From Hydrurus foetidus (taxonomy: Eukaryota): a stretch of 54,854 nucleotides of DNA. The stretch spans positions 1 to 54,854 of the forward strand of contig UYFQ01000285.1 in the NCBI GenBank assembly GCA_900617105.1, written 5' to 3'. A program made the position numbers and the translations under genes. This document shows positions 3,531 through 33,065 of this stretch, in pieces. The stretch's first letter is position 1. Each line of letters opens with the position of its first letter. Under the pieces are notes generated by a model. The model did no database searches and was not told the DNA's origin. It saw only the letters and a list, made by a program, of their open reading frames with translations.

Positions 3531-3533
3531 TAA

Positions 3534-12101: not shown

Positions 12102-12113
12102 AATAGCGCTATT
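12102..12113 (-). promoter_or_regulatory. 12-bp palindrome at the PBS position of gypsy A (AATAGCGCTATT)
   Basis: Perfect palindrome overlapping the last LTR base; no TGG-type tRNA PBS. Confidence 0.8.
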
Positions 12114-12319
12114 GTAGTCCGGATGGAAGAGAAGGTCGATAGAACGGTAGGCGGAAGTTAGTTACAGGCTATGCTAGACGCTAGGTTAACTTCTACGAGT
12201 CAGCTGCAGCTAGCTAGCAGTAGCGCTAGAGATGTAAGTGTACTATAGGCGGAAGGATCGGGTGGATCGTGAGGAGGTCCGGTAAGGTCCGTAGGCCCGG
12301 TATACCCGGTACGACCACA
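12113..12319 (-). repeat. 5' LTR of gypsy A (207 bp, TG...CA)
   Basis: Minus strand reads TGTGGTCGTACC...GGACTACA; homologous to the LTRs at 16222-16427 and 37909-38095. Confidence 0.9.
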
Positions 12320-13850
12320 ATGTGAGGGAATACTGAGAGGATGAGGTGCGACCCGGATCCACCTTTACCCCGACTATCGAAGATTTGGGATGACAATATA
12401 TCGATTCCCAGCGATATCAAAATGCTTGAGATTCTTCGATTATGATGAGGGAATTGTGAATGAGGTATGCATCTCATACACGACCTCATTCAATTCAAAT
12501 CTAATAGTAATGTTACTGATTAGGACCCCTGGATTCCGATACGGCCGTTCATTGGTGCATTCAATGCGAACAGGATAGACAGAGTTGTTATTTCAGGAGA
12601 TCTCGTCATTGACGAGTGCATTTTCGCGTGGAAGGGATCCGAGAAGCATGAGTGCATGCCGCATAAAACGAAAATCATGAGGAAGCCACAAGGCATTGGA
12701 GCGGAGCTCTCGCTGACGGGGAGTCCGGTATACTGCTGCATCTGGAGTTTATGGAAGGAAGAGTATCAAATAAGTTGAAAGAGTTCTGTGACGAATATCC
12801 ATCATCTATCGCTCTTACTTTGCGTGTCGTGAAGCACTACTTTGGGACAGGTATAACACTGCATGCTGACAGTGCATTCAGCAGTGTCTCCACGGCGAAA
12901 GCATTACGGAGTCGAGGGCTGTGTCAAGACTGCGACCAGGATGTTTCCGAAGAAGTTTTTTGAAGAGCGGTCGAAGGGTGAAGATATTCAGAGAGGGCAC
13001 CACAAGACGCTGAAGAGCACCATCACCCTTGAAGATGGCGTCACTGTAGAGCCGATCTTCGCTGTGGCTTGGAAAGACAAGACGATTAAGAAGATCGTCT
13101 GCACGAGAGGCCTGACATCGGTCATGGAAAACCCATCAGTTCGGCACAGGCGTCGTCTTGTTGAAACTAATTGGGGTCACGTGAATGATAGGTTCGATGT
13201 TCACATACCACAGCCGCAGGCGATCGAGATATTCTTTAGCTGCTTTTCGAACATTGATGTCCACGATCACTACCGACAGGGCTCGCTAGCTATGGAGAAG
13301 AAATGGAACACGCAAACTTGGTGGCATCGGTTGCTCGGTACTCTGTTTGGCATGATCTGTACCGATGCTTTTCTTGGATATAGACTCGAGTTCCGTAACA
13401 GACAAATGGGAGAAGTCGGTATTCTATCATACAAAGACTTTCTTCTCCGACTTGCGTATCAACTTATTCACAATAATGGAATCCGACCTCGTCTGAGGCG
13501 TCGTCAGCGTGAGGTGGAGGAAGAAGAGGAAGTGGTGGTGCCTGTAAATGTAAGTTACTGTAAAAGCATCCCACAGTGTCGCTTTTTATTCTCACACCTT
13601 ACTCATCAAAACATACTAGGATCATCGACTTCTACCCCTGCGAGGCCTGCCTGCATATAATGGTTTGGGTGCCAATATGCGCGCAAAGCGGAGATGTTGC
13701 ATGGGAGACTGTAATCTCCAATCCCCATATTATTGTGTGACATGCAGTGACGTAAATAATGACAGAAGGATAGTCACTGTCTGCAATCCTCACAACAAAC
13801 CCCATTCATTGTTCTTCAATGCTCACATAGCTCTAAACCTAAATGCGTAA
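12320..13850 (+). pseudogene. piggyBac transposase, 3' part: frameshifted, two introns, C-terminal Cys-rich domain
   Basis: Motifs DPWIPIRPF, IDEC, HADSAFSSV, WKDK, DVHDHYRQ, WWHR and CCMGDC...YCVTC. Likely introns at 12465-12523 and 13550-13619. Confidence 0.8.
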
Positions 13851-14016
13851 CCAAAAAGTAATTAAAAGTATGCTTCTGGAAAAAAGTTATGGCCGATACA
13901 GCTATGTCAGTCTCCGGTGCACCAGTACATCAGAATTTAGGTGCACCAGAGCACCGATTTTTCTGGTGACGAGAGCTTAACTCAACTATGCCGTGTCAAA
14001 CTGGTCAAAATTATTA

Positions 14017-15606
14017 TTTCCCGGATTTTGTAAAAATTTCCGGATTTCTATCTCCAACGAATTTCACAATCGAATCCTACCCTCGCATCTCCAAGCCAAT
14101 CTACTCCCCGACATGTAACATAGTAGAGAAAGCTGTAGAACTCCAGTTAGAAAAGTGAATCGTCAGTTCCCCAATATGCCCATCATAGGAGCTATAGCCG
14201 CTACTACTTTCATTGGAAATCACTATCACCGAAGAAATGAGGCAGCCCGAAGACTCGTCAAAACAGGAGATTTCGCCATCTCCAGCCGATACAGAGCATC
14301 TGCTACAACAGGCATGAAGCTTCTAACGCTTGATTCTTGCTTCAGCATGTATCAATACCTATTTGGTCAAACATATTGGCAAGCGGCGGTCGCTGAATTC
14401 TTCAACCCACCGAAATTTATTTGTGCCTTTTTCGTCACTGAAGAAAAAGCTTCTCTATTTTGCGACTGAGCTGCTTACTCATCACAAAACTTTGTGGAAA
14501 GCTGTATCATATATCCTAGCCTGTGATGATGAGAATTGTGACTGCTGTGATAGTACAATCTCTGCGAAACAGCAGTTCGAAAAATTAATACATGAACTGA
14601 TAAGTGAATAATTTGATAAGCAGTGTTTGATTGCAGTTAAGTAAATGTGGCATTAGGTGTTTTTCTCTGCGGATACTGTTGGGTTAGAGTACACAATTCA
14701 GAGAGAAACTACCGATGACACTGCAGTAACTAAGCAAAAGTAAGCAAATCCAAATGGCACCATTCAGAGAACAACAAAGAAGTATCTTATTCGAGCAGCT
14801 CTACAAAGAATTCTGCCAGATGCGGTTTCGCAGAGATTGTAGAAATCATTATAAAGAGAGTCAGAAATTTGTCCGTGTTCGGACACGTGTCGCAGGAAAA
14901 AAATATTATTAATTACGCTTTAGCATGCTTTGGCGCCAACTCTCATCAGTATTCTATACAGTATGTAACATACCGATGGCAATTCCTTGGCATACCAGCG
15001 CAATGATATTCTATCAATTATTTACAAAAATGGTCGTGATACCGAACAAGTGTTTTTAAAATATTGCAACTGTCACAGCAGTCACAATTCTCATCATCAC
15101 AGGCTAGGATATATGATACAGCTTTCCACAAAGTTTTGTGATGAGTAAGCAGCTCAGCCGCAAAATAGAGAAGCTTTTTCTTCAGTGACGAAAAAGGCAC
15201 AAATAAATTTCGGTGGGTTGAAGAATTCAGCGACCGCCGCTTGCCAATATGTTTGACCAAATAGGTATTGATACATGCTGAAGCAAGAATCAAGCGTTAG
15301 AAGCTTCATGCCTGTTGTAGCAGATGCTCTGTATCGGCTGGAGATGGCGAAATCTCCTGTTTTGACGAGTCTTCGGGCTGCCTCATTTCTTCCGTGATAG
15401 TGATTTCCAATGAAAGCAGTAGCGGCTATAGCTCCTATGATGGGCATATTGGGGAACTGACGATTCACTTTTCTAACTGGAGTTCTACAGCTTTCTCTAC
15501 TATGTTACATGTCGGGGAGTAGATTGGCTTGGAGATGCGAGGGTAGGATTCGATTGTGAAATTCGTTGGAGATAGAAATCCGGAAATTTTTACAAAATCC
15601 AGGAAA
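14017..15606. repeat. Long inverted repeat: arms of about 540 bp (about 14017-14554 and 15069-15606), spacer about 510 bp
   Basis: Arms are near-identical reverse complements; the ORF track shows mirrored 104-aa and roughly 92-aa ORFs on opposite strands. Confidence 0.92.
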
Positions 15607-15612
15607 AGATAA

Positions 15613-17950
15613 GAGTGCGTTTGGTAATTTCCAGTTCATATTACACTGGATTGGAAAATGCGACGTATTGCAAACGCCCAGTGGATTCGTGGGTCAAGTG
15701 TATGACGAGTAAATTGTTCGCCGAACACAATCGATCTTAACCATCGAACAACATCACTGCAGCACAACAATATAACCAAACATTACGCTAGAGCACAGCA
15801 TGGATGAAGTTGGTAATTACGACGTCGATACCATCACTCTTGTAGCTCTAATTCTGCTCGATGAGACTGAGCAACGTGGGCAACCTGTTCCGCGGCACAA
15901 CTCGGTGCTGACAGGACAAATCTACCTACAGGAGCTGCTCCTGACGGAGAGCAACGCACGGATTCAGAATATTACGAGGATGGATAGACTTACATTCCAG
16001 AGTTTGCTGCTACTTTTGGAGACTCACGGAGGTTTGAGCAATTCGAAATACGTTTTAGCGGGCGAAATTTTACTGTCGTTCATTCTAGTCCTGACAGGCA
16101 ATTTGAATAATATCGTAGCATTCTGGTTCAACAATATCGTTACTAGTGCATGAAGTTGCAGAGACTTTCAAGCGCTGTCAGCAATACTTCTGGTGCCCTG
16201 TGAAGAGATATGACCCAACACTGTGGTCGTACCGGGTATACCGGGCCTACGGGACGTACCGGACCTCGTCACGATCCATCCGATCCTTCCGCCTACAGTA
16301 CACTTACATCCTTGCACACTGCTAGCTAGCTGCAGCCGACTCGTAGAAGTTTATCCTAGCTTCTAGCATAGCAACTGGAACTAACTAACACCTACTTCTC
16401 TATCGACCTATCTCTATTCGGACTACAACACAACCTGAAATCGCACAGAATCCGGAGTTCGGTCCGTACTTTGCGAACTGTATTGGTGCTCTTGACGGCA
16501 CGCACATTCCTGAGATCGTATCGTCTGCTGAACAACGACCGTTTAGGAATAATAAGAAACAAGTGTCGCAGAATGTTCTGGGTGTGGCGAACTTCAGTCA
16601 AACTTACAGTTATGCTCTAACTGGTTGGGAGGGTTCGGCGCACGATAGCCGAGTGTTGAAGGACTCAAAATTGAGAGGTCTCCCGCTTTTCCCTAGCAAA
16701 TACTATCTTGGAGATGCAGGATACGCGTTGCCTTGGCATGTCTTGACTCCATACAGAGGAGTGCGCTATCATCTTACGGAATGGAGAATAGGTAATGAGG
16801 GACCCCAAAATGCTCAAGAGGTTTTTAATCTTTGACATTCTTCCCTCAGAAACGTTGTCGAAAGAATATTCGGTGTAGCTAAAAACGATTTCCAATGCTT
16901 GTTGCTATGCAATCTTATTCCTTCCTTTTTTAATGTGACCTAATATCATCAAGTCTATGATGACGATTTTGATGACATTCAGCTAAGTAATGATGATCCT
17001 GATCATGATGATGTCGAAGTAGTTGAAATTGTCGGTAATGCAAATCAGCTAAATACATGGAGGAATGGGATAGCTGATGCAATGTGGGAAGATTTGAACC
17101 ATTTGAATGCTCATCATGATTGATATTACTGTTACACATTTCTCATTTTATGATTCAAAGTCGATCAAATCTAAACAAACTTTAATGCTCTCAATGATTT
17201 CATCATCTTCTTGAGCCAGAAATATTTCGTAATTGTCCTTCAAGTACTTCTGGTACTTTAGCTTCTGCGCGGGGTTAGTTTCGCTGAGTATTTGCTGTTG
17301 AAAATGTGGAACACCTTTGAGAGATCGCTTTCTTTACTGTGTATGTCGATCTGTTTTCTTTGGTTGGCCACAATTCCTTCGAAGAACTTGTTCTTAGATT
17401 TTCTTTCTGGTTAGGCCTTTCTTTCAATTTCCTGGCCTGTACTGGCAGTGGTTTGACGCCGGCCAGGACCGGCTTATCTTCGTCACTCGGCTTCGGCTGT
17501 TTCTTTGACACATTATTGATTGGACTGCAGAGGATGACGTCTCCCCTTGAATACTTCTGTCCAGCGAGAGATGAGATCGCTTTGCCGCTGTCGTCTTTAG
17601 AAGCCTTTGACATTGCTGCTTATTGAACTGCCTTCCAGAGGCTGCATTGAGATCATCTACGATGTGTCTCCAAGCTGCTTTTTTAAAGCCTGTGTCAACA
17701 AAGGTGCCTGACTCAACTTCCCTCAACATTGCATTGATAAAGTAGCGTCGATTGTCATCGTTTCAATCTGCCTTAACATTGCCCTTCTCTGCCATTGTGA
17801 AATGCCAGCATGTGCAAGATGAAGTCTTGTTATGTGATACTGCACAGCTATCAAGATACTTCAGCGATTTGAAGAGCTCCGGAAATCCAGAAAAATATTT
17901 TCGACAAAATAGCCGAATCTGGATTCGAGTGGATTGGGAGGAGTTTCCTG
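15613..17950. mobile_element. Decayed PIF/Harbinger element 1 (transposase + strand, Myb/SANT partner - strand); right end not found
   Basis: TAA followed by a PIF-like end GAGTGCGTTTGG. HARBI1-like remnants at 15800-17100 (CIGALDGTHI, GWEGSAHDSRVL, YYLGDAGY, LTPYRGVRYHL). Convergent Myb-like remnants at about 17170-17794 (DTGFKKAAW). Confidence 0.82.
16222..16427 (+). repeat. Solo LTR of the gypsy A family inside the Harbinger transposase
   Basis: TG...CA, 206 bp, with 4-bp TSD ACAC at 16218-16221 and 16428-16431. Confidence 0.92.
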
Positions 17951-18099: not shown

Positions 18100-19702
18100 G
18101 ATTTTTCCTAATTTTTCCTCGATGGAGGTTTCATGGTTTTAGTCAGTAAAAATCTGACATAATTACGTATCGAGGCCTCGTGCACATGTAATTGTGTACT
18201 CGGCACCCAATTTATCTCTTCGACCGACACACCACAATGTCTATTTTGTATAGATTTTTATTCTACTTTTATTTTCGTATAAATTTTTCCTTTTTAATCT
18301 TTCCCGTTCATCTCTGTAGTTATCATTAGTTATATATATATTTGTACAAAAACGTGGTGGTCGTGTCATAGATTACTTTTCTTCGGAAAAATGTCGAGTT
18401 CCGGGGGACAAACTTGCACCTACCAAATTTCTAACCCCCTCGATGAAAATAAGACAATTCCACTTACTCCTGGATGAAAATAAGCCCATTTCAACACAAA
18501 TCTCCCACTGGGCGTTAAAAATAAGTCAAATTTTACCCCTAATTTCTTACTCTTTGATAAATATAAACCAATTTAGAGCCCAACTTACCTGGAAATTTTT
18601 TGTGGCTTCGGCGAGATGGCTCACAGAAGGATGAAGAAGCATCCTGCAGTGACTATATATTCACTCTACTGCGTTGTCTTCCATCACCATCCTGCTCAAG
18701 CGAAAGGTATCTTCGTAGTGGCCTTGAACCTCTGATCGAAATGAAGGATGAATCCTCAAGGGAGTCGGTAAAATGATGTTCTGTTGCCTGCTGAAATCCA
18801 GAATCCTATCTATCACGCAACTAATCAAAAATTTATACAGTTAACTTCAGATATGCCTTCCGATCTGCACACCAACCACCATCTGAGCAGCTAACATCAT
18901 GACAGCTCTCCGAGATACCCTCGGAAATGTCAGCACCTTTCAGAGGTACCAACGCAAATTCATGAGGCTGTTGGACAATTCCGCATTTTAATCTGACGGA
19001 CAATGTGTATGCTGTCCACGTAGCTTACAGAAGCTAAAACAAGAGGACGGGTTTCTTGGATCAATTGCAAGGGCTGTTGATCAGTTTGCGAGAACTGCAA
19101 ACTAGGATGAGCGGCTAACGGCCACAGATCGTTCAGCAACAAGAGAGTCGCTGGACAGGATGTTTGGCTAAAAGAAGCCGGTTTGGGTTTGGTGTTTTGT
19201 TTAAAGATTTAAAGATGTGAGAGGTGTATCGAAGAAGCTGACTACGAGAGTTGCAAGTTGAAGTATTCGAGAAACCAAAAACTGGTACCGAAAAGCTGGT
19301 ACCGAAAAACCTGTGGCTGCAAGCAATGTGTACTATGTACGTACATACATGTAACGTACGTGTGAGAATGCAATATAGTGGAAACTATGAAATAGTGGAA
19401 GCTATAACACCACCCCTTTCGCGGTTAAATGTGAGACTATGGGAGTTAAAAAATGAATAAATACAAAATATGTTGTTACATCTCAGTGAGTTCGCAAACA
19501 TTGTTGTATCGATGTAGAAGCATAATTAGATATGAGGTAAGAAAAATATTACTGGCGGTTTCATTTTAGCAGTAGTTATATGTGAGAATCGAACTCACGA
19601 CCTTCAAAGTGTGAAATTAAGATTCGATAGCTTCACCGAAACCACTTTAATATGAACAGGGAGGGGACCTTCATTTGCCTAGAATCATGTTTTAGTTTTC
19701 AT

Positions 19703-19760
19703 GTTGAAGTTGAAGTTGAAGTTGAAGTTGAAGTTGAAGTTGAAGTTGAAGTTGAAGTTG
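19703..19760 (+). repeat. (GTTGAA)n microsatellite in the 3' UTR of gypsy B
   Basis: About 9-10 direct hexamer copies. Confidence 0.9.
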
Positions 19761-20066
19761 CGAGAGTTTTGAGAGATGGATTCAGATGTAGTTTTTAATT
19801 GCGGTTCAGAATCTGTAATCAATCACAATTTATTCGAACTTCGATTTTTTATTTGTCTCTGCCGTTTTTGAGAAAAAATTAATAATTGCCGATCGGTGAA
19901 ACGTGTGAGAAGATCGGTGAAACGTGTCGGGAGAAATTTTTTGTATTCAGTGTGGATACTGCGTACGATTTTTGAAAAATTTCGTATTCATTGGGGATAC
20001 TACGTACAATTTTTGGCGAATTTCGTATTTATTAGGGGTTCGCCTCAGGTGTTGGGCTTTCCATAT

Positions 20067-23000
20067 TCAAGCACCCTTGTGGGCTTTTGGAGTAGTATCG
20101 ATACCTTGTTGAGGGAGGTAATCGTGTCGGTAGGGTAGTGGGATTTTATTTGTATGCCCTATCTTTTGTAGGTACTCGTGGAGGGCCTTGACAAGTCGGA
20201 GCGAAGTCCAAGGCTCCCAGGAATCGGAATCGGAGGTGTAGCCGTGCCAGTGGACGAGGAGCTCAATTGATTTCAGGTGAGTCCATTTTCCACGATGAGC
20301 GACAATTGATTTGACGATGTATTCTTCTCGATCAAGTAGTCCAATCTTTTGTGCTGATCTCATTGTGCCGATGTAGGGGGAAATGCGGTCGGTGTGGAAG
20401 ACGTGTTCTGTATTGAGCTGAGTGTGCAGGCAGGTAATATTATTTCCGTCTTGTGTGATTACAGTGTATGGGCCTAATAGTTTTGGTGCAAGTTTTGATG
20501 ACCGAAACGCCTTGTCATGTTCTTTTGGATTCCACAATATGAGATCGCCTTTTTGATATATGTTTTGATTTGTTGTGGATGCTTGACGTTTTTGTCGCAA
20601 TTCGTGTTGATATTGTGTTGTGATGGCACGGACTATTGACAAATTTATGTCTAGTTGATTAACGTATTCACCGTAGGAATGACCTGGTGGAAGCGGCGGT
20701 GGTAGTTGAAAGCGGGCATGATCCATAGTACCGAACTTCAGCTCTGTTGGAGCGAGACCGCCAAGTTCGGAATTTGGTGTGGTGGCTATTGCATGATTGA
20801 TAAGAGGTAAGATAGTGTCAGATGCCCACTTATGAGTGAGTCGTTCGTCATGAACTAGACGGCGTAAGTGACCCATGAAGATACCATTTACATGTTCTGT
20901 TCCGTTAGATTCGTGACGTTCAATAACTGATATACGATGGGGAATACCAATCCAAGAGTTGAGCTGTTGGACGACTGTTGCAGTGAATGCACTGCCAGGA
21001 TCAGAGTATAGTGCATCATAAGCACCGAAGGTACAGTAATGTTGGAACAGAATAGTTGCGACAGTAGGAGTAGTGTAGTCGCGTACTGGATAAGCACGGG
21101 GGAATTTTGTGTCATGTTCTACAAGTAGTAACAATCCGATATAACCATCTTCGTCAGGAGGTGTAACTGTAACATGATCCATACCGACGGCGCGAACGTG
21201 GTGAAGGATTGTTTCAGTAAGTGAAGGAGAAGGTACAGTGGCAAAAGGGATTCGATCCTTTTGGCAAATCGGACACTCAGCTACAAGGTCTTGGATGGTG
21301 CGGAGTGCGATGCCATGTCCAGGATAACGTTGACAAAGAGTCAGGTAAGTTCGTTTGGCTCCGTGATGGAGTGATCGATGACCGTGAACAGATGCGAACA
21401 TTTCTTGAATACTGAGTGTATTCTCCGATGACGATAGGGTTGAAGATGGTGTCGATTGAGGATGCATACGGGATATCCAGTCGGCAACACCATTTTCTTT
21501 ACCAGGGATATGTTTGATCTGAAAGCTGTAGCTTTGAAGGAGGACACGCCAGCGTATGATGATAGGAACAAGGCTTGTCTCCATCCATACTAAATTGCGA
21601 TGGTCAGTTTCTACAACAAAGGTTTTGCCGGTTAAGTAATACCCGAATTGACACACGGCATAGTAAATTGCGTATGCTTCTTTTTTGTAGGTATCCCAGT
21701 TTACTGCGGCGCCGGAATATTTATGAGATGCGAATGTGATCGGCTGATGGATGATGGTACCGGATGAATCAGTGAATTCTTGAAAGAGGACAGCACCCAC
21801 AGCGTTGTCGGAGGAGTCGGATCTGATGATCCAGGGAAGGTTGTAGTCTGGGAAGTGTAGTATGACTGAAGCTTGGATTGCTGTCTTGAATGTTTCGAAT
21901 AGGTTGCGATAGTCTTTTGGCCATGTCAGAGACTTCCAGTCAAAAGACACGGCAGTACACTCGTATAAATCGGATGCCCATGAGGCATAGTTGGGGATGT
22001 GAGTGTGGAAAAAGTTTGCAGCACCTAGAAAGCTTTGCATTTGCTTTTGCGTTGTCGGAAAGACAAGAGCACTGATGGCATCTTTCCGAGACTGAGAGAG
22101 GCTCCAGGTTCCTGGATGTACGTCATAGCCGAAAAATGTTACATTTGTGGAACCAATCCAAGACTTCTTCATTTTGAGCACTAGTCCATGCTCGCGGCAA
22201 CGTCGGAGAGCAAGGTCAAGTTTCTTGGCTGCATCAGCGTAGTCAGAGGCGAGGATAAGAAAATTGTCGAAGATGACAATGATCCAGTCTTCATAGTCGA
22301 TAAATACTCGGCGGACGATTGATTGGAGGATTCCTGATGCTGGTCCTACACCTTCAGGAAGGAAGAGGGGACGGTACAGACCCCATGGTGTAGATACAGA
22401 CAGAAGGTTGGAACTTGCTTCGTCAAGTGGGATTTGATGAAATGAGTTTGTCATGTCAAGATCTACAAAGACTTTCCATCCGGCTGCTTTTGCTAAGGAT
22501 TGCTGTACATGTGGAATGGGTTCCTGTGGAATGGATATGAAGGGGTTGATAGGCCTGTAGTCACCACACAAGCGGATGAATGGTGGTGTGGCTTTAGGTG
22601 CAACTACTAACGGGCAAGCGATTGGTGAATTTGATTTCACGTAGAAGTACGTTTTCATCCGATCAAATTCTGCTTTGGCATGTTGGTAGAGCATATCGCG
22701 AATTGGGCGGGTGTGAGCTTTCAGTAACTCAGGGAGACCAGGTTTTGTGGTCAGATGGTATGGAGGCATATGTATACCTGTCCAGGTTTGAGGAACAAAG
22801 ACATCATATGCCAGGTCAGACGTGAGAAGGCGATAGATGTTGGGATGAGCGGCACTCATTTCTGGCATGACGTGAGTCTCTAAATCTTTATTGTATTCAT
22901 GACGAGCCTCATCTTTTGAGACAGTGAGAAGCATGAGTATATCGTCAGGGAAACTTGTTGGATCAGGCGTCTCGGATTCTTCGAGTGCAATTTGATCAAT

Positions 23001-23861
23001 TGGTTGCGACCAAGGTGGTAGGATATCTCCTGATGACGGTTGAGTCAGTAATGATGAGAGTGCATTGTGCTGTAGTTCGACGCGGTTGTCAGCATACACT
23101 AGTCCATGCCGCGGGTGTGAAAGGACATCAGTGCTGGAACCGTCATGCAGAGCAACAGCGTAGATATCAGTATTGGAGCTAGTACAGATGGCACGCTTTC
23201 GGAGATCGTACGATCGACTGTGGGAACTAAGGTTATGCGCTGTGCGAATTGTGTTGCCAAGATGAGCACAAGGTAGGGATTCACGGATTGTGGCGGTTAA
23301 AGCGTGAAGATTAGTTCCTATAGCTCCGATTGCAGATTTTCGAGAAGAAGCTATCGCATCAGCGAATACATCGTAGAAAGGTCCGACAAGGTCGACGAGA
23401 CCAATGATAAGATCATGACTGAGATCCTCAAGAACACTATACCATAGTATGTGAGCGTGATCGTTGCCAGAGGAATCAGTCAAACAGACCAGGAGTTGGA
23501 TTTCAGATTGAACTGCAATGTGACGTGCATCACCAAGGCGGACAATGCGATCCGTTGGTCGAGTAGCAAGCGTATGCGATTTAGGTAGGCTGAGAACTAG
23601 TGTACCGGAAACAAAGTTACTGCCTTGTGCGCCAGTGTCCAATAGACCACGAGCGAAATGGAATGGGTTGAGTCCGTCCTTAGATTGCACTGAACCAGCG
23701 CGAATGAAAGGCTGACAAAGAGCTTGTGCGGGTACAGACGTACTAGAAGCCAGTTGTGAGAGGAGTGCTTGAGAGAGAATAGCTTCAGGATCAAAGACTA
23801 TGGAAGAAGGGGCGAGGTGATCCTCTGACTGTAGGGAAGTCAATGAGGGCCTCGCAATTCC
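20067..23861 (-). CDS. pol: Pol of gypsy B (PR-RT-RNase H-IN-chromodomain), in frame after the gag TAG
   Basis: LLDTGA protease; RT with RLCGDYR, DMTNSFHQ and IFDN; RNase H SDSSDNAVGA/EAYAI/ETDH; integrase HHCC, SDPGSAF and GPY; chromodomain LVHWHGY...DSWEP. Confidence 0.93.
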   Translation of the reverse strand, partial: GIARPSLTSLQSEDHLAPSSIVFDPEAILSQALLSQLASSTSVPAQALCQPFIRAGSVQSKDGLNPFHFARGLLDTGAQGSNFVSGTLVLSLPKSHTLATRPTDRIVRLGDARHIAVQSEIQLLVCLTDSSGNDHAHILWYSVLEDLSHDLIIGLVDLVGPFYDVFADAIASSRKSAIGAIGTNLHALTATIRESLPCAHLGNTIRTAHNLSSHSRSYDLRKRAICTSSNTDIYAVALHDGSSTDVLSHPRHGLVYADNRVELQHNALSSLLTQPSSGDILPPWSQPIDQIALEESETPDPTSFPDDILMLLTVSKDEARHEYNKDLETHVMPEMSAAHPNIYRLLTSDLAYDVFVPQTWTGIHMPPYHLTTKPGLPELLKAHTRPIRDMLYQHAKAEFDRMKTYFYVKSNSPIACPLVVAPKATPPFIRLCGDYRPINPFISIPQEPIPHVQQSLAKAAGWKVFVDLDMTNSFHQIPLDEASSNLLSVSTPWGLYRPLFLPEGVGPASGILQSIVRRVFIDYEDWIIVIFDNFLILASDYADAAKKLDLALRRCREHGLVLKMKKSWIGSTNVTFFGYDVHPGTWSLSQSRKDAISALVFPTTQKQMQSFLGAANFFHTHIPNYASWASDLYECTAVSFDWKSLTWPKDYRNLFETFKTAIQASVILHFPDYNLPWIIRSDSSDNAVGAVLFQEFTDSSGTIIHQPITFASHKYSGAAVNWDTYKKEAYAIYYAVCQFGYYLTGKTFVVETDHRNLVWMETSLVPIIIRWRVLLQSYSFQIKHIPGKENGVADWISRMHPQSTPSSTLSSSENTLSIQEMFASVHGHRSLHHGAKRTYLTLCQRYPGHGIALRTIQDLVAECPICQKDRIPFATVPSPSLTETILHHVRAVGMDHVTVTPPDEDGYIGLLLLVEHDTKFPRAYPVRDYTTPTVATILFQHYCTFGAYDALYSDPGSAFTATVVQQLNSWIGIPHRISVIERHESNGTEHVNGIFMGHLRRLVHDERLTHKWASDTILPLINHAIATTPNSELGGLAPTELKFGTMDHARFQLPPPLPPGHSYGEYVNQLDINLSIVRAITTQYQHELRQKRQASTTNQNIYQKGDLILWNPKEHDKAFRSSKLAPKLLGPYTVITQDGNNITCLHTQLNTEHVFHTDRISPYIGTMRSAQKIGLLDREEYIVKSIVAHRGKWTHLKSIELLVHWHGYTSDSDSWEPWTSLRLVKALHEYLQKIGHTNKIPLPYRHDYLPQQGIDTTPKAHKGA

Positions 23862-25676
23862 CTAATTTGATTTCATTGGAGGGTAGAAGGTTTTCCCATG
23901 TAAGGGTTCGAATTTATTGGAACTCTGATGTGTCGTGAGCCCTTTGCGGTAATCAGGACGAGGTTGTGTATTTGAGGTTTGGGACCATGGTGGTAGCTGA
24001 CCATGAGCAGCAATCTCTCGTCTGCTGAGCAGATTAAAGGAAGCCAGACAACGCTCCTGAGCTGCCGTTGAATGATCGTTCGTGCAATTCTTTGACTGGG
24101 AGCATTTTCCGAATACAAACAGCTCACAGCAATAACCACGAAAAGTAGCCGCAATAGCAGCACGTGAGGGATTGGTGGTAGTGAGCACAGCTAACGAAGG
24201 TTCGTCTGGGGAGGATGGATTGCGTTCATTAATTAAATCAGTAGAATTCTGATGGCTGTTGTAGACGGAGTAGTCAGAGTCATCTATGTCGTCATAATCA
24301 TAGTCTTCGTCAATTTTGTTATGACCAGTATCATCATGATTGTCTTGGTGATCCATGTTTGTGTCGGCTGAGGAGGCAAGCGCGGAAAAGTTGGTACGAA
24401 AATGATGACGGGTCTTCGAGATCTCAGCAACACGTTGATGAGATGGATTTAAGGCTGGTATTTGATGTCTGCTGTGAGACTCTCCTTGAGTGGAACGCAA
24501 TTCATTCCAACGCATAGGCGTTAATTGGGAATCAAAATCTTGCCGGGCTTCACTGTTAGAACGTCCTTCCATGAGTTTGAAACGGACGAACTTGACAGCC
24601 GACTCAAGCGTTTTATGCTTGCTTAAATCATCTTTGCCTAGCCATTGTAGGATTGAATCTTTTTGACTTCCGAGTGATATAATCCAGAGTGAGATATGGC
24701 CAGGGCTATCTTTTGTACCATAGGTACCAACGGGCATTTTGGCAGCGTTGTTGCTGAGCTTAGATGTCTCCTCAGATAGGAGGTTGTACAGACTGAGCAA
24801 ATCATTGAGAGATCTCATGAGCGGGCCGTAGAATATTTTCGAGAAATTCTCGGTGTTGATGTCGGGGCTTTGTGGAATTCCTTTGCCAAGGAATAGAATG
24901 AGTTCCCGCGAATACAACTCCTTTGTGCGTGGTCTCGACGCTTCGATTAGAATCTGTTGAACAGATGGATTTGTGAAGGAAAGCCAGTCTTCAACCATTA
25001 CTTCTTCATACTCACGACCATCCACTTGTGACTGTCGGAAACGGAAGGAGTTCCAGTTGGCTACGACATGAGGCCTTAAGTTGTAAGCTACCATGTGAGC
25101 CATCTTGATGTCGCGACCAGGATACTTTGAAGCTAGTAGCTGCATCTGTTTTGCAAGGTATTGAAGTCCTTCTAGTGAGGAAACTTTCAATTCCTTATCG
25201 TAGACGATATCATTTTGCAATATCTGGATGCGTGGTTGTTGGGAGGAGGTTTGCTTATCATCTGGAGACAATGATTGCCCAAAGAAGATGGTGGAACGTC
25301 GGTCGCTTTTCGAACGATCCGCAACAGGTGTCTCAATATCACCAAGAGAGTATGGACTTTCATCGCCAGGCTTCATTGATAACGAAGCGATGGCTGCACG
25401 CAACTCTGTGATGTCTTCTCTGTTGGATTCTTGATTTCTGACACTCTGCTGACAGAATTGCGTAACCATGGCGCGGAATTCGGCATCGTCGTCATTCTTT
25501 CGAATAATTGGAGTTTCATCTTTAGTAGTAGGCTTGCCAGGATCCAACTTCGGCGAGTTCTTCGGAACAATAGGAACTTCTTTCGACATGGATTTCTGCT
25601 TCGAAGAAGAGAAGGATATTTTTTGTACAAATGTTTTTTTGCTTCGTGAAATGTCACTGAAGGAGTTGAATCTCAC
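23862..25676 (-). CDS. gag: Gag of gypsy B, with a C-terminal CCCH-type zinc finger
   Basis: 604-aa ORF directly after the 5' LTR and leader; motif CCELFVFGKCSQSKNCTNDH. Confidence 0.85.
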   Translation of the reverse strand: MRFNSFSDISRSKKTFVQKISFSSSKQKSMSKEVPIVPKNSPKLDPGKPTTKDETPIIRKNDDDAEFRAMVTQFCQQSVRNQESNREDITELRAAIASLSMKPGDESPYSLGDIETPVADRSKSDRRSTIFFGQSLSPDDKQTSSQQPRIQILQNDIVYDKELKVSSLEGLQYLAKQMQLLASKYPGRDIKMAHMVAYNLRPHVVANWNSFRFRQSQVDGREYEEVMVEDWLSFTNPSVQQILIEASRPRTKELYSRELILFLGKGIPQSPDINTENFSKIFYGPLMRSLNDLLSLYNLLSEETSKLSNNAAKMPVGTYGTKDSPGHISLWIISLGSQKDSILQWLGKDDLSKHKTLESAVKFVRFKLMEGRSNSEARQDFDSQLTPMRWNELRSTQGESHSRHQIPALNPSHQRVAEISKTRHHFRTNFSALASSADTNMDHQDNHDDTGHNKIDEDYDYDDIDDSDYSVYNSHQNSTDLINERNPSSPDEPSLAVLTTTNPSRAAIAATFRGYCCELFVFGKCSQSKNCTNDHSTAAQERCLASFNLLSRREIAAHGQLPPWSQTSNTQPRPDYRKGLTTHQSSNKFEPLHGKTFYPPMKSN

Positions 25677-25787
25677 CCGAACAGAATCAGCTCTTGTTTG
25701 GCCAGATTCGCAAACTACGACCGTCGTCTGGCTTGAAGAGTCTTATTCTGAACTCGAGATTTGTCTGGTCGTTCTTGTGTAAACGAG

Positions 25788-25799
25788 AAAAGTACTTTT
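25788..25799 (-). promoter_or_regulatory. 12-bp palindrome at the PBS position of gypsy B (AAAAGTACTTTT)
   Basis: Perfect palindrome overlapping the last LTR base; the LTR boundary is fixed by LTR-LTR comparison and the TSD. Confidence 0.85.
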
Positions 25800-26689
25800 A
25801 TGCTGTCCACGTAGCTTACAGAAGCTAAAACGAGAGGACGGGTTTCTTGGATCAACTGCAAGGGCTGTTGATCAGTTTGCGAGAACTGCAAACTAGGATG
25901 AGCGGCTAACGGCCACAGATCGTTCAGCAACAAGAGAGTCGCTGGACAGGATGTTTGGCTAAAAGAAGCCGGTTTGGGTTTGGTGTTTTGTTTAAAGATT
26001 TAAAGATGTGAGAGGTGTATCGAAGAAGCTGACTACGAGAGTTACAAGTTGAAGTATTCGAGAAACCAAAAACTGGTACCGAAAAGCTGGTACCGAAAAA
26101 CCTGTGGCTGCAAGCAATGTGTACTATGTACGTACATACATGTAACGTACGTGTGAGAATGCAATATAGTGGAAACTATGAAATAGTGGAAGCTATAACA
26201 TGTGAACGCCAAGTCACTTTCTTACCCTCTTGCACCTGAATTCTTATCGCCGTCCAACAGAACATAATGAATTGCTGCCCAATTTCGAATCACAGGTTTC
26301 AGCGTGGACTGCCTTCCCTGTATGAGAGGATGGAGTATCTGATATGCCTCTATATCAACGCGGGATATAAATCTGGGCGACGTGAGTACCTTTCTCATGC
26401 GTGCTAGCAAAACTTACCTGGCGAAATGGCACTAATCGCTGATTACTTTTGACAACCAGGTCTCACTGTGAGAGCCTTATTGTTTGAAATGTGAAGGAGC
26501 CGCAGGCGCATTTGGAATCGACGGCGTACTATAAAGTGGACATTGTGAGTGAGATGAATATTTTTCTTGAATTCAGTTACGCTCTCAATATTTCTCCTAA
26601 ATTCAACTGCACTAACTCCTATTTTAATGGCAGGAGGAAAATAAATAATTTTATAAAAGCGTTAAGTAATTTATTTTTCATCTAAACGA

Positions 26690-27410
26690 AGAGTATCGTT
26701 TCTTAGTTGCAAGTTGATTTCGTAGTGCACCTGGAGAGTCAGAGGTCAGGGCATCGTAGTACAAAATTTAAAAATAAATAAATTTGATTAAGAGTATTTA
26801 AAAAACGTTTCCTAGTTGCAAGCTGCTTTCAAAGCACGCCTCGAGAGTCAGAGGTCAGGGCATCGAAGTACAAAATTTAAAAATAAATAAATTTGATTAA
26901 GAGTATTTAAAAAACGTTTCCTAGTTGCAAGCTGCTTTCAAAGCACACCTCGAGAGTCAGAGGTCAGGGCATCGAAGTACAAAATTTAAAAATAAATAAA
27001 TTTGATTAAGAGTATTTAAAAAACGTTTCCTAGTTGCAAGCTGCTTTCAAAGCACACCTCGAGAGTCAGAGGTCAGGGCATCGAAGTACAAAATTTAAAA
27101 AAAAAATCAATTTGATTAAGAGTATTTAAAAAACGTTTCTTAGTTGCAAGCTGCTTTCAAAACACACCTCGAGAGTCAGAGGTCAGGGCATCGAAGTACA
27201 AAATTGGAGAAAAAAATTAGGGCTAATTTGATAAAGAGTATTCAAAAAAACGTTTTCAAGTTGCAAGTGGATTTTGGAGTATATTTGGAGAGGTTAGGGC
27301 ATTGGAATTAGAATAGTTTGAAAAAATAAAAAAATAATAAAAAATCAATAGTATCTTAAAAAACGTTTCTAAGTTGCTAGTGGATTTCGGAGTATATCGG
27401 GAGAGGACAG
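26690..27410. repeat. Tandem array of about 109-bp units (about 6-7 copies, degenerate at the edges)
   Basis: GAGAGTCAGAGGTCAGGGCATCG recurs at 26734, 26843, 26952, 27061 and 27171. Confidence 0.92.
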
Positions 27411-27615: not shown

Positions 27616-30215
27616 ACAACCTTAGGGCATCGGAATTAAAATTATTTGAAAAAAAGAGTATTGACAAAAACGTTTGGACTTCAAAGTAAATCAGGAGAGG
27701 TACATTATATTTCGTATTATGTATTTCGTGTTTCGTATTTTTATTTTTTTATGTATGCATCCATAACATTCTTCTGACTTTTCAGGTCAATTTGACTTCT
27801 ACTTTTTTTACTACTCGCAGTTTTGATAGAGGAAGGCTTGTTAGCTGAATTAATAGACAGCGTACTAAAGGGTGGTGCGTATGACGATGGATCGTGTAAT
27901 GTTGTGATGGATTTGGGTTGATCATTAATAGGCGTGCTTGAAGATGAAGTGCCACATGAAATTGTAGTTTTTGGTTTCGAGAGAATCGTAGTTGTAAAAC
28001 TGGCTACTGTAGATGATCTTCTTTTTTCATTCTCTTTCACTTTCTTTATTTTGTTTATTTCTGCTAATCTGCCTTCTACTCCATTTACTGACATGTGCTT
28101 GCGTCTTAGTTTTGTCTCATCACGTAATGGAAAATATGTATCTTCATCTCTTTCTAGTGTTTTCTCAAGTCTTCTCTCTATTTCTATTGTCTTGTCACGT
28201 AAATTTGTGTTCCATACATCATACTCAGGGGAAGATGAATCTGGTATGGATGAATTAAGAACTCGCATATCCTCATCTGTACAGTGCTTCATGATGAAAG
28301 GTAAAATGGTGTTCACTATGCGACTTTTATCCTGAGTAGATGATGTCCTAGTTTCCACAATCCATGATGCTTCACAGATAAGATTGTAATAGTATCTAGA
28401 ATACAGAATAGATCGTAGGTACAACCCCTTCATTGTGAAAATTCTGAGAGGAGTCACACCTGGCTGAAGTGACGCCAATGCAGTGCTTGATTGTGTCTCT
28501 CCCACCACACTCTCCTGCACAGCAATTGATATTTGAGTCTTCACATCCTCTTCAAGTGGAAGTTGCTCCTTTTGACATCATGTTGAACACGTTGTAAATA
28601 TAGTGATGATTATTTAATGATTATTTTGGCATACAAGAGCTCTTTTTAGCTTACCTCTATTTTTTTATGGCGTTCCTCCAAGGTGTTATCTTATATCTTC
28701 AAATAATCCTTCAAATTTGTCTACGGTGTTCCTCAGTGTGTTAATTTCTTGTCTAATTATTTTGATTTTTCTCATTTGCTGAATATTTGATTTTTGTAGT
28801 TCTATATTATTGTTGATAATTGCGTCCATTAAAGCTCTATTTTCATCATTATTAGACTGCAGTTTTGCATTTCGCAATTGCCAATCAAATCTAATAATAT
28901 CTCCCCATTCTTCTAGCACTATTTCGCTGACTGAAAATTCGCGTGCTGATCTAATCATATTCAGATTTATTATATGCGTCTGTCCAAATTTATTCAACAT
29001 GCTCGAATGATACACTAGTATGCTTGCGAACATGCATTCTAGCAAGGGGCGTAATTTGCTAACGACCTCAAAAAAATCCTCTCGCACATGAAATAAATGA
29101 TTCACATAATTATTAATCAGCTGATTGTTTGTTTCATTGATAATTAATTTCAAATTAGGCGTTACCGGCACTTTTATGTTAGTACTGTCAGAATAGTAGT
29201 AAGATGGATATCCTGACAATGCCATCGCAGCTGACATTTTGAAAAAACAATATCAAAATTAATGTATTAAAATATAATCGAAGCCGAAAATGAAAATATC
29301 TTATTTGGCTTCAAGAGTCGTACCTGGCAATGCCGACATCGGTGTGGTGATGACATATTCCCATGACGCTGAGTGACCTGTCATGTCATGGCCTCCATGC
29401 GTGATAACCGCATAAGGTGACACATTCCTCGCAGCTGCTTCGTTAATAGAGCCGACTCTCAGAGAGTTACCACTTACATCCGCAGGTAATGACGGTGTGA
29501 GTCAGACTGTGGAGTGAAGCGAGCTACCTGTTGGCTGCGGAAGCGCAAAGGAAAGACTGGCTGATGGAAGTGGTCTCGGAAGACGTGTTTACTTACAACG
29601 ATCAAGTAGTAAAACAACTGGCGATGATATCAGAGAAGACAACCATCAAAGAAGCAAAGCAAAGCATCCATTGTGCATGAAATGGTGATCGCCGAAGTGG
29701 AAACATATTCAGCGAATATTCAAGTTGGCGATTGAGCAATGGGCGGAACCCTCGCTGCTCATGAAATCGGATGCTTGGTGGAAACCGGATACCTGGTGGG
29801 AATCCGGATGCTTGGTGGTGAAAAACCGGATGCTTGGTGATGGCCCCGAAGGGGGATATCGCTAGAAGAACGATGAGCGTATGTACACAACAGTGTATGG
29901 CGGTGTTTTGGGTGAGGAAGCGCTACACTACTTGTGACATGTGAATGCTAATCTACAGATGAAACTATGCTAACAGATCATGCATGAATATGCTGGACTG
30001 ACACTCCCCGTAGTGAAGATGTAGCTGAACGTGTTATTGAGAGTATCGAAATGAATGATATGTGTATAAATACTCCCCGTACTGAGGATGTACTCCCCGG
30101 ACGAGAGATTTGGCAAAAAGGGTGTAAAAAAAAATTAGTTATAATATATGCGTGCACTCATATAAGATAGTAAAATTAGTACGTATGTTAGAAATATGAA
30201 TATTAAGTATTTATG

Positions 30216-33065
30216 TTATTTAATATTAGTTCGTAAAGACTTGTCAACGAGCCTGTGCGTTAGGTATTCGAAAAGTGGTAGTGGAACTCTTTTCGTACCT
30301 ATGTCTGAGTTGTTTTCGCCCGAAGGGATTTTAACAATGACACAGGTACCATCGGCGACTTTGTCCTTAAAGTAGTTTTCGCTCAGGTCAATGTGACGAA
30401 GGTTCTTGGTCATGTGTGTATGATTTGAAGCATCAACACAAGCAGAATTGTCTTCTTCGATGACTGTAGGAGCTTGTGTCCATCCCATGTGGTTTAGTAT
30501 GCCCCGGAGGGGAATGACATCGGATTTTAGTGCGTGATTAACTGCCTTGATTTCGGATTCCGCAGTTGATGATGAGATGCTGCCTTGGTCGGTACTCTTC
30601 CAGCAGATGACATTGTCGGCGAGGTAGCCAATGTAGGAGGTCTGGGAGTGACGGTTGTCTTTGTTACCGGCGAGGTCGGCGTCGCATTGGAACTTCAACT
30701 GCAGTAGACTGGTCATCGTAGCGATGTCGGTGGGACCGTCGTGTGTGGTGAATTTCAGTCTATCCATCTTGGCGTACTTGACATATCGAAGTAAGTGCTT
30801 AAGAAACTTGATGTGTCGTGCACCTGGACTGTTACTATATCGTGATAGTATGTTGAGAGCGTACATGATTGTGATCAATGTGTGTACCATTCCGTACATA
30901 AGTTGACCAACTACCCGTCGGTAGGGATACTTATTATACATGTGCCTATCGAGATCGGTAGAGTTGTCCGCCTTGGACAGACTCTCACCAGAAGGTGGAT
31001 ATGGTAGATGCTCATCGGCGGCGCCAGCAAGGTTGGCCTCCGATACGATGGATGTGATCATACGTGATTGATCCATGTAGTAGTTGAAGTTTTCATCGCA
31101 TGTAATGCGGATGCCGACGAACTCTTTGGAGGTCGCGTCGGTGACTTCATACTTGTGGGAGTTGAATGTAGCGATGAGGAGATCCCATTCGCTTATGAGT
31201 GCAAGTGGTCCGAACCACCTGAAGTCGTCTGAGTGTGCTATCAGTATCAGGGGTTGACCTTGGACCCACTTAAAGAAGAACTTTAAGTCCCACGGTGTGT
31301 TTTCGTATCCACATTCGCGTACACATTTGTCGAATTCCTTTGAGAAATTCTGGCCAGCTGGTGGAAAACCGTAGAGGTTGCCAATGGCTTGAAAGCATGT
31401 GCCAAAAGGTGTGGTGTAACCTTGAGGTGTCTTGATGTGAACGGGAAAGTCGGGGTTAGCGAGTGTGATTAAGTAGGCGCCTACTAAATCTCCTCCCCGC
31501 ATGGATAATTTGTAGGTTGCGGCGATGACGAGTGCAATCTTGATCGATGACGCATTGACATTACCGCAGTATACTGCGTAGGGGTCGAAGTCGACCCAGG
31601 GTATCATGAGATCACCACGACCTACGAGGCGGGCCTTCTTGGTGCCGTCAGTCTTGATACTGAAGAGCCACATCATTGGTACGAGGTGCTGTCCGGTGAA
31701 GGGAACAGACCGGAAGCAGTTGTTGACTTCAAACTTAGTTCGCTCAGTGTTGATGGCCTGTTCCCACTCTGGGTACTGCATTGCGGTCCAGAAGTCTTTG
31801 GGGATGTAGGGATCCTTGATTTGGACTGCTATGTTGTAGTGCAGGACACGGAAGAGGTGAACAGGAAAGCATGTGGAAGAACTGGTGTAAGTGGACCAGT
31901 ATATCATGTCATCGTTGACTGAGTGCTCTGTCTCAGCGACAGGGGTTATATAGTCGGGGTTGATAAGGGGTGCAGGTGAGGGGAGGCCGGGTAGGTCGAC
32001 TCGCTCAGGCACCACAATAGGGTCATTATTATTATCAGTATAGTAGAGGGACGGGATGAGGGCGAAGGCCTCGTCGGTAGGGAAGTGTGCATCGGAGTCA
32101 TGCTTGAAGTTGTTGTGCATGTCGAAGATGACATCCTTACTGACTCGAACAGTACCGTAGGTGTTCTTGGGTAGTATTTCTAATACTAAATATTGTGGTA
32201 CTAGTATAGATGTAAAACAATAACCAACGAACCGAGCACGGTAGGCACGAGGTGACCCAACTTTACTTTTCTGATCTTTGGGTGCGTGCTTGACATAGCA
32301 GGGTGCCCAGAATGGTCGAAGCATCCTGATGTCCACGTGTTGCCCAGAAGTGAAGTGATACGGAGAAGTACCAATACGCTTGTTAAGGTTAAAGGAATGA
32401 GTAACACATGCATAGGACATTGCAAGGTCCCAGAACTTCATTGGCACATGCGGAACAGGGGTTATCATGGCAACGTTGGTCTTGAGAGCTACAATGCCGA
32501 CTGCTCGCTCAGCGATGCCGTTGGCATGTTTGTCACGAGGTGCAGTGTGCTCAAGTCGGTATCGGTATCGGGCGCAAAGCGCAGTAAATTCTTCAGATCG
32601 GTAGTTGGCCTCTGGGTCATGCCGGATGAAGCGATCAACCCCAGGGGTATTGTGGTTCCATTGGGGGGTTAGGTCGAAGAAGGCTGCAATGCGGGCACAG
32701 AGTTCAGAGGCGGACCGGTCTTTTGTATATACAGGATAGTATTGTCCCGACGCGAGGTCGGTGAGGATGTGAGTGTAACGGTAGTTACGGAATGATGGAG
32801 TCGAGTGGGTATAGGCATCCAAGGAGAACTGCTGGCCGACGAGGGTAGTGGTGTCTCTGTGAATGCGACGATAGTCTGTGGATGCTTGACGCATTGCGCC
32901 ATGGGCGCATCCAGGACAGACCGGACGGGAGGTGTGTGCATCTTTGGTGGTGAAGCGAGCATTGAGGGAATGATCGCGGTGCCATGCCATGCCTGGAAGA
33001 CCGGGGTGGCCTGTGGCTTGATGCACGTGGTCGTACAGTGAAGCGGGAGTATAGTGTGTGACCAA
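30216..33065 (-). CDS. pol: Copia pol (integrase, RT, RNase H)
   Basis: HQATGH...CPGC, ANGIAER, KARLVGRGD, LYGFPPAG, HSDD, CDADLAG, SSTAESE, EDNSAC, ENNSDIGTK. Confidence 0.92.
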   Translation of the reverse strand: MVTHYTPASLYDHVHQATGHPGLPGMAWHRDHSLNARFTTKDAHTSRPVCPGCAHGAMRQASTDYRRIHRDTTTLVGQQFSLDAYTHSTPSFRNYRYTHILTDLASGQYYPVYTKDRSASELCARIAAFFDLTPQWNHNTPGVDRFIRHDPEANYRSEEFTALCARYRYRLEHTAPRDKHANGIAERAVGIVALKTNVAMITPVPHVPMKFWDLAMSYACVTHSFNLNKRIGTSPYHFTSGQHVDIRMLRPFWAPCYVKHAPKDQKSKVGSPRAYRARFVGYCFTSILVPQYLVLEILPKNTYGTVRVSKDVIFDMHNNFKHDSDAHFPTDEAFALIPSLYYTDNNNDPIVVPERVDLPGLPSPAPLINPDYITPVAETEHSVNDDMIYWSTYTSSSTCFPVHLFRVLHYNIAVQIKDPYIPKDFWTAMQYPEWEQAINTERTKFEVNNCFRSVPFTGQHLVPMMWLFSIKTDGTKKARLVGRGDLMIPWVDFDPYAVYCGNVNASSIKIALVIAATYKLSMRGGDLVGAYLITLANPDFPVHIKTPQGYTTPFGTCFQAIGNLYGFPPAGQNFSKEFDKCVRECGYENTPWDLKFFFKWVQGQPLILIAHSDDFRWFGPLALISEWDLLIATFNSHKYEVTDATSKEFVGIRITCDENFNYYMDQSRMITSIVSEANLAGAADEHLPYPPSGESLSKADNSTDLDRHMYNKYPYRRVVGQLMYGMVHTLITIMYALNILSRYSNSPGARHIKFLKHLLRYVKYAKMDRLKFTTHDGPTDIATMTSLLQLKFQCDADLAGNKDNRHSQTSYIGYLADNVICWKSTDQGSISSSTAESEIKAVNHALKSDVIPLRGILNHMGWTQAPTVIEEDNSACVDASNHTHMTKNLRHIDLSENYFKDKVADGTCVIVKIPSGENNSDIGTKRVPLPLFEYLTHRLVDKSLRTNIK

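Follow-up and report, generated by a model that had tools for sequence, protein, structure and literature searches.

An intact Ty3/gypsy retrotransposon occupies positions 19008-26200, on the minus strand, of a 54,854-nucleotide (nt) stretch of DNA from Hydrurus foetidus (contig UYFQ01000285.1 of assembly GCA_900617105.1; the whole stretch is referred to below as the window). The element comes from a lineage in which the reverse transcriptase (RT) carries the motif xxDN, and in place of a tRNA primer-binding site it has a palindrome through which two genomic RNAs probably anneal and serve as each other's primer. We assign a probability of roughly 0.55 to this reading as a whole, and about the same to its central part, namely that reverse transcription would be primed by a dimer formed at the palindrome. 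The broader view, for which we would give a little less than even odds, is that the element represents a deep, uncatalogued Ty3/gypsy lineage of freshwater protists (well over 100 clusters at 50% identity) that would combine tRNA-free reciprocal dimer priming with a rewired RT active site. One intact template makes it possible to test how long terminal repeat (LTR) elements that have neither a tRNA site nor a Tf1-type self-primer begin reverse transcription, and a second question that it opens concerns the role of the third RT aspartate.

The palindrome at the primer position

The preliminary description of the window had proposed a palindromic primer-binding site, and this is indeed what is found: a perfect 12-nt palindrome occupies the primer position, overlapping the 5' LTR by its final base (Table 1). 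No TGG site follows the 5' LTR of this element. Sites of the TGG type are present in the window's two copia-type elements and in its degenerate gypsy at 7282-12562, and there are no tRNA genes in the window. It should be noted that the window holds 19 perfect palindromes of at least 12 nt; a single palindrome therefore proves little, and the support comes from relatives.

The relatives comprise 86 loci, of which 79 are metagenomic (from the best 80 of 160 matching stretches) and 7 are contigs of metagenome-assembled genomes (MAGs). The palindrome test set consisted of the 33 loci, this element included, in which the start of gag is present and preceded by at least 60 nt. All 33 contain, within 260 nt upstream of gag, a perfect 12- or 14-nt palindrome starting with A after C or T. 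Dinucleotide shuffles of the same regions yielded 0.62 such loci on average and never more than 4, and a palindrome was present in 1 of 37 regions downstream of pol. When any 12-nt palindrome was accepted, the count was still 33/33 (shuffle mean 2.5, maximum 7). At 70-90% identity, the 33 loci represent 14-19 RT clusters. In the remaining 54 loci, 16 further palindromes were picked by hand upstream of a long open reading frame (ORF), those of L002 and L068 being more distant and less sure; apart from L077 and L078, discussed below, the rest of these loci have their 5' end missing.

Over these 49 sites there are 21 different palindromes. In the 18 different 12-mers all pair positions vary except the first, both central pairs included, and the central pair (positions 6-7) varies yet is always complementary (TA 10, AT 4, CG 4). 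Since the centre of the palindrome stays complementary, and the centre of a fold-back hairpin cannot pair, the pattern argues for pairing between two RNAs. Duplex energies of ten tested palindromes range from -6.8 to -15.5 kcal/mol, and 8 of the 10 form no hairpin. A Tf1-type partner in the LTR was found in none of 46 relatives, a GalEa-type downstream partner at none of the 49 sites, and the best match to a self-primer complement in this element is 7 nt long. What seems to be constrained at the primer position is two-fold symmetry; the variation among sites points to a palindrome that pairs two RNA genomes.

Reverse transcriptase of the xxDN lineage

The IFDN motif that the preliminary description had noticed in the RT holds up as well, because it is aligned with the YLDD of Ty3 by a profile of 52 relatives, whose best match is Ty3-G Gag-Pol (E 4e-73), ahead of cauliflower mosaic virus (CaMV) and retroviruses. 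YxDD is usual in Ty3/gypsy RTs and is not taxonomically defining. With the RT-RNase H as query, 543 proteins matched at E <= 1e-30. Among the 120 matches listed, motif C reads IFDN in 119 and IYDN in 1, motif A contains Asp-x-Asp in all, and the other catalytic residues are kept.

We aligned 160 RT segments, namely 157 from the best 150 representatives (50% identity), that of this element and those of the two conventional gypsies in the window. Motif C is xxDN in 148 of them, xxDD in 11 and absent in 1. The xxDN segments form one clade (FastTree support 0.96, stem of 0.95 changes per site) in a tree whose outgroup consists of the 11 xxDD segments only, without named reference-library sequences. 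Glu occupies the motif-B position in 148/148 xxDN segments versus 0/11 xxDD segments, 10 of which have Phe. Two residues before the motif-A Asp, the xxDN segments carry Asp (129), Asn (9), Glu (8) or a gap (2). Given the general geometry of RTs, this extra residue would lie near the Asn of motif C. The distribution suggests that acidic residues in motifs A and B may compensate for the Asn. Between relatives, the proportion of nonsynonymous differences in the RT is about 0.02-0.11 at near-saturated synonymous differences, which amounts to strong purifying selection. Judged from the alignment and from the palindromes, the lineage is a large Ty3/gypsy group defined by an xxDN/PEG RT and a symmetric primer site.

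The predicted RT-RNase H model (predicted local distance difference test score 88) matches in fold the RTs of CaMV, murine leukaemia virus (MLV) and Ty3, with CaMV and MLV just above Ty3; the ESM Atlas returned generic RT clusters only. Like other Ty3/gypsy elements (Metaviridae), this element has the order protease-RT-RNase H-integrase, a GPY module, LTRs, a target-site duplication (TSD) and a polypurine tract; Ty3 is its best solved-structure match, and the Pfam families RVT_1 and RT_RNaseH match its Pol. Unlike Ty3, it has IFDN instead of YLDD, PEG instead of PFG, an additional Asp in motif A and no tRNA primer site, as well as a CCCH rather than a CCHC finger and an in-frame stop rather than a frameshift.

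Proposed reciprocal priming and its alternatives

In the mechanism that we propose, Gag would be translated from the first ATG, and Gag-Pol would arise through occasional readthrough of the stop codon, aided by a hairpin 7 nt downstream. Within the particle, two RNAs would anneal through the 12-nt palindrome. A cut near the 3' end of the palindrome, by analogy with Tf1 probably made by RNase H, would then free a paired 3' end of about 11 nt, which would prime minus-strand DNA at the last base of the LTR. The RT would work with two aspartates and an Asn, possibly with help from the Glu that is invariant in motif B and from the mostly acidic motif-A residue, and the integrase would insert the TG...TA ends with a 4-bp duplication. 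If priming is reciprocal, primer and template would share one site, and a change in one half of the palindrome would be copied into the other during replication; relatives that differ in their palindromes are already saturated at synonymous sites.

Several points weigh against this mechanism. Priming, readthrough and RT activity are all deduced from contig sequences, and the model gives no stop for plus-strand copying of a long self-primer. The start of the palindrome on the last LTR base is established for this element only; the relatives' contigs are collapsed or partial at the LTRs, and there the overlap is deduced from the preceding C or T, a pattern chosen after inspection of the data. 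The palindrome duplexes are weak and AU-rich, and no palindrome is present in L077 and L078, which are broken but have enough sequence upstream. As to the RT, the acidic residues and the Asn are not independent evidence because they arose once on the tree, and 9 xxDN segments carry Asn at the motif-A position. Finally, the Ty1 mutant D211N is 223-fold slower and its transposition is blocked (PMC2148107), and the Ty3 mutant D214N keeps polymerase activity and is lethal for transposition (PMC5371799).

Three groups of elements offer comparisons for the primer site. The fungal Ty1/copia elements of the GalEa type have a Conserved Hairpin Site, a 10-nt palindrome of which two sequences account for 85% of families and whose downstream partner forms a hairpin, the mechanism being open (PMC5445492). 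They resemble the present element in having no tRNA site, in a palindrome to which the 5' LTR contributes its final A and in a C-C-C-H Gag finger. They differ in that the element described here is a gypsy and not a copia, its lineage has palindromes of 12 or 14 nt in 21 variants, and a downstream partner of the CHSeq2 type is lacking (0/49). The Tf1/sushi chromoviruses Tj1, Tosmo1-3 and Tcry1 likewise unite tRNA-free priming, an in-frame gag-pol stop and a chromodomain in one element, and stop readthrough has been described together with these traits for Tj1 and its relatives (PMC4600332; bioRxiv 10.1101/2022.12.06.519325). However, their primer is the 5' end of the transcript, which is complementary to the site, and no such complement exists here; moreover, the Tj1 TSD is 5 bp and that of the present element 4 bp. 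Skipper of Dictyostelium is also a chromodomain gypsy without a canonical primer site or an LTR self-primer, but it has a polypyrimidine tract instead of a palindrome and a CCHC Gag (PMC5006619). GalEa and Skipper are unsolved priming cases in print, and the natural palindrome variants of the present lineage are ready-made controls for symmetric swaps.

Among the alternatives, the one that survives best, though we consider it unlikely, is that the palindrome serves as a dimerisation or packaging signal, or is bound by a dimeric protein, for instance the CCCH nucleocapsid, and that the primer is a tRNA fragment, a protein or something else. The complementarity of the centre demonstrates pairing of two molecules and not priming, and Donnart et al. 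have drawn a parallel between retroviral dimer initiation sites and the palindrome of GalEa (PMC5445492). Against this, the palindrome is located exactly at the primer position, where it overlaps the last LTR base, and no TGG site follows the LTR; for a sequence-specific protein site in particular, the 21 different palindrome sequences argue otherwise.

Less likely still is a free primer of about 11-12 nt excised from another transcript of the element, either by the RT or by the small-RNA machinery of the host. To match the site in trans, such a fragment needs the same symmetry, and it would provide a natural stop for plus-strand synthesis, as does the Tf1 primer, which is 11 nt long. It requires two cuts, however, where reciprocal priming requires one. 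We regard it as improbable that the symmetry acts on DNA, with cDNA ends annealing for the second strand transfer or for circle formation: the terminal overlaps seen in the assemblies of many relatives agree with it, yet LTRs that collapse in short-read assembly are expected to produce overlaps of this kind, and the primer would be left unexplained.

The last alternative concerns the RT. Ty1 D211N, Ty3 D214N and bacterial G2L5, a natural DD-to-DN class that has been read as a loss of activity (PMC2602772), have all lost the second Asp of YxDD, as has the present lineage. Unlike the xxDN lineage, which is polymorphic in its host and under selection, the yeast mutants keep some polymerase activity but do not transpose, and G2L5 is not known to be mobile. 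In Ty1 and Ty3 the Asp-to-Asn change abolishes transposition, and its presence in a mobile element is the least expected of the traits combined here. Because loss of this Asp blocks transposition of Ty1 and Ty3, yet the lineage keeps Asn while being mobile, natural compensating residues are pointed to. That the xxDN RT is instead weak or dead, and the elements are moved in trans by conventional YxDD elements, would fit these mutants, the reading of G2L5 and the presence of YLDD gypsies in the same window, but is very improbable given that strong purifying selection acts on the entire RT-RNase H throughout a deep clade, that the other catalytic residues are kept and that the neighbouring elements use a different primer site.

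The element, its relatives and the window

Table 1. Features of the Ty3/gypsy element, with positions in the window
Feature	Position	Strand	Remark
5' LTR, 402 bp, TG...TA	25799..26200	-	junction contigs support
3' LTR, 402 bp, 3 differences from the 5' LTR	19008..19409	-	
TSD, upstream copy, 4 bp, TGTG on +	26201..26204	.	empty-site contigs support
TSD, downstream copy, 4 bp, TGTG on +	19004..19007	.	empty-site contigs support
Perfect 12-nt palindrome AAAAGTACTTTT; first A is the last base of the 5' LTR	25788..25799	-	
gag, 575 amino acids (aa) from first ATG (25589)	23865..25589	-	helical domain, weak matches to retrotransposon capsid C-terminal domains
CCCH zinc finger in Gag, C-x8-C-x5-C-x3-H	24072..24131	-	
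In-frame TAG between gag and pol, context UAG-G; likely readthrough site	23862..23864	-	
Predicted stem-loop from 7 nt after the stop; likely readthrough stimulator	23812..23855	-	z -2.9
pol, 1264 aa, in the frame of gag: protease (DTG), RT, RNase H, integrase (HHCC, D-D-E, GPY), chromodomain	20067..23861	-	
Protease DTG	23619-23642	-	
RT motif A, VDLDMT; lineage-typical extra Asp two residues before the catalytic Asp	22449..22466	-	
RT motif B, LPEG; Glu where Ty3 has Phe	22350..22361	-	
RT motif C, IFDN instead of YxDD	22263..22274	-	
Chromodomain at integrase C-terminus	20199..20324	-	Pfam 27.4 versus cut-off 25.1 bits
(GTTGAA)9 microsatellite in the 3' untranslated region	19703..19756	+	
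Polypurine tract abutting the 3' LTR	19410..19420	-	

The earlier picture of an intact, young gypsy with TG...TA termini is borne out: gag and pol are open, the LTRs differ at the position pairs 19041/25832, 19065/25856 and 19253/26044, and a 4-bp TSD flanks the element. The ends read TG...TA on the minus strand; the TA end is fixed by two contigs of run X2 that exit the LTR precisely at 25799. The alternative of a TG...CA end and a 6-bp TSD was discarded, as it needs a mismatch and other copies exit the LTR at TA; so was a 5-bp TSD, as its terminal base is common to both LTRs. The check for insertion polymorphism suggested in the preliminary description was made on contigs from 4 runs of 4 studies, out of 24 runs listed, and in each of the four a contig bridges an empty site with a single TGTG. 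These alleles carry a single copy of the target, and their flanks are a few percent diverged from the window; strains are thus polymorphic for the insertion. Internal depth was about 7-10 times flank depth in four runs, which is not a copy number and gives a hint that the element is present in several copies. In RNA run X19, three short contigs cover the LTR and primer region at a depth of 2-3.5, by which transcription is not demonstrated. The element is intact and apparently young, and it is likely to be autonomous and recently active, the signs of mobility being the 3/402 LTR differences, the empty site in 4/4 runs and the purifying selection on the RT between relatives. Rfam gave nothing credible across the element, and the viral contig collection contained no relative found by protein or by alignment. 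The runs holding half or more of the sequence words are, where labelled, sediment or freshwater metagenomes, together with three from an organism given by a code. Along with the uS2 gene described below, they suggest that the host is probably like a freshwater chrysophyte.

The gag frame is open across 23865-25742 and is separated from pol by an in-frame stop. At 87 loci (the 86 and this element), the gag-pol junction has an in-frame stop after at least 250 open codons in 43; in 8 further loci with a stop the frame is open to the contig start, and in 4 it is short. In the others, gag and pol are fused (11) or open for 1061 codons (1), pol is broken (9), the locus is truncated (8) or no motif is found (3). 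L003, counted among the fused loci, actually has a stop and an inserted domain. TGA accounts for 43 of the 55 stops and TAG for 12, with no TAA, and TGA-CGG occurs 20 times, counts that near-identical loci inflate. Of the distinct 50-mers after the stop, 33/44 fold with z < -2, versus 12/128 control windows. A hairpin including the TAG itself, proposed by eye, was rejected, since the predicted stem begins at +7. The first Met of pol comes at aa 310, downstream of the protease; in the proteins P0039, P0040 and P0166, the nearest relatives, sense codons run across the junction in one frame. On the tree, the fused state needs 5 changes, at least 2 of them forced by well-supported branches. Because of the stop contexts, the downstream hairpins, the position of the first pol Met and the fused nearest relatives, Gag-Pol is likely to be made by stop readthrough. 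The readthrough put forward in the preliminary description thus stands as likely for this element, with close relatives having a fused gag-pol instead; splicing across the stop may be an alternative. Type II/III readthrough signals, known from viruses and some cellular genes, consist of UGA-CGG or UAG-G followed, after a short spacer, by 3' RNA structure (PMC3159437). Both contexts and a 3' structure are found here too, but in one retrotransposon lineage and with a compact hairpin at +7. The lineage offers paired fused and readthrough forms of gag-pol.

The CCCH finger of Gag is present as claimed earlier, although it is unmatched by Pfam in this copy. With a relaxed pattern it is found in 48/54 Gag frames, and one relative scores above the Pfam zf-CCCH cut-off; a precedent for such a Gag is Saci-2 (PMC2582038). 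The Gag model has no Pfam match and no significant Foldseek match in PDB or BFVD. In VIA-align, 9 of 50 rows, including 4 of the first 5, are Gag-derived capsids with Z 4.6-6.3, all under 8, among them the capsid-like domain of MOAP1 (Z 6.3, root-mean-square deviation 3.4, 101 aligned). These matches are no more than suggestive of a capsid fold in Gag.

The chromodomain scores above the Pfam cut-off in this element, as expected from the preliminary description, but it is confined to a near subgroup and is not a trait of the whole lineage (63 hits among P0001-P0070, none among P0071-P0120). ECR-1 and Chronos are stramenopile chromodomain gypsies outside the chromoviruses (PMC11541908; bioRxiv 10.64898/2025.12.07.692804; PMC5348765), and Ectocarpus gypsies have 4-bp TSDs and, in several families, TG-TA ends (PMC12477816). 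Compared by description only, Ectocarpus gypsies, ECR-1 included, share with this element an ochrophyte host, 4-bp TSDs, TG-TA ends and chromodomains outside the chromoviruses; unlike here, no palindromic site, xxDN motif or readthrough is reported for them in the accessible portions of PMC12477816 and PMC11541908. No named brown-algal protein occurs among the matches listed. An identification of P0361 as ECR-1 was dropped: both have 1699 aa, but the C-terminus differs from the published description. Chronos and Archon of oomycetes differ in their additional archaeal-type RNase H (PMC5348765), which is absent here, with one RNase H in the Pfam scan.

Readthrough, a CCCH Gag, a chromodomain, TG...TA ends and a 4-bp TSD each have a published precedent. 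The suggestion that the element belongs to a poorly described lineage is upheld with qualifications: most of the traits are lineage-wide and no description was found in the searches made, while several of them are each documented elsewhere, and the lineage may yet fall within a catalogued clade. Our literature search, which left subscription journals mostly outside, yielded no paper on this lineage, and queries aimed at an xxDN motif in retrotransposons, at palindromic primer sites and at intermolecular palindrome priming returned none.

Some relatives carry captured domains, which is a further resource of the lineage. An exodeoxyribonuclease III (xth/APE-type) precedes the protease in P0080, P0089, P0090, P0100 and L003:3697-6500, above the TIGR00633 cut-off, and follows the integrase in L075 and L076:795-8039, below that cut-off; P0094 belongs to the same Pfam family. 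Just above their Pfam cut-offs are a SET domain before the protease (L007:1001-5716) and a CYTH domain between RNase H and integrase (L068:1-4575). One subfamily has an extra ORF between palindrome and gag (L009:1242-2474, L039:4880-6286, L012:8491-9471), of 411 aa in L009 and 469 aa in L039, without a Pfam match; the L012 copy ends at the contig end, and the palindrome of L009 and L039 is identical to AAAAGTACTTTT of this element. Long ORFs of 281, 961 and 1340 aa without a family match lie 3' of pol (L001:5993-9952; L068:5124-9143). Three predicted proteins of 2853-3582 aa (P0422, P0438, P0457) contain three or four YxDD-type RT-RNase H stretches each. Seven pieces of the lineage (L080-L086) lie inside bacterial MAG contigs, probably through binning contamination.

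The window contains several other mobile elements. A young copia at 29496-35609 (-) has 508-bp LTRs (99.8%), TG...CA ends, a 5-bp TSD, the primer site TGGTAGCGA and coding sequence in several frames. An element resembling a terminal-repeat retrotransposon in miniature, at 36451-37561 (-), consists of two 518-bp repeats (99.2%) around 75 bp with the TGGTAGCGA site and a purine tract; by eye, it has a 5-bp TSD if the LTR start is shifted two bases later. Degenerate conventional YLDD gypsies are located at 7282-12562 (-) and about 47700-54000 (-), the second with a chromodomain-like match at 47774-47980, and fragments of the 5' region of the first recur at 16218-16430 and 37926-38098. A tyrosine recombinase ORF (1666-3531; Phage_integrase, E 7e-10) adjoins an 88-bp perfect inverted repeat, and a Harbinger-like pair at 39532-41781 consists of a Myb/SANT ORF and a DDE_Tnp_4 transposase on opposite strands. 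Inverted repeats of 544 bp (99%) surround 514 bp at 14011-15612, and a 109-bp tandem array extends over 26697-27406. A gene for ribosomal protein uS2 is present at 5115-5924, for which the chrysophyte Dinobryon (75% identity) is the sole organism named among the 120 matches listed.

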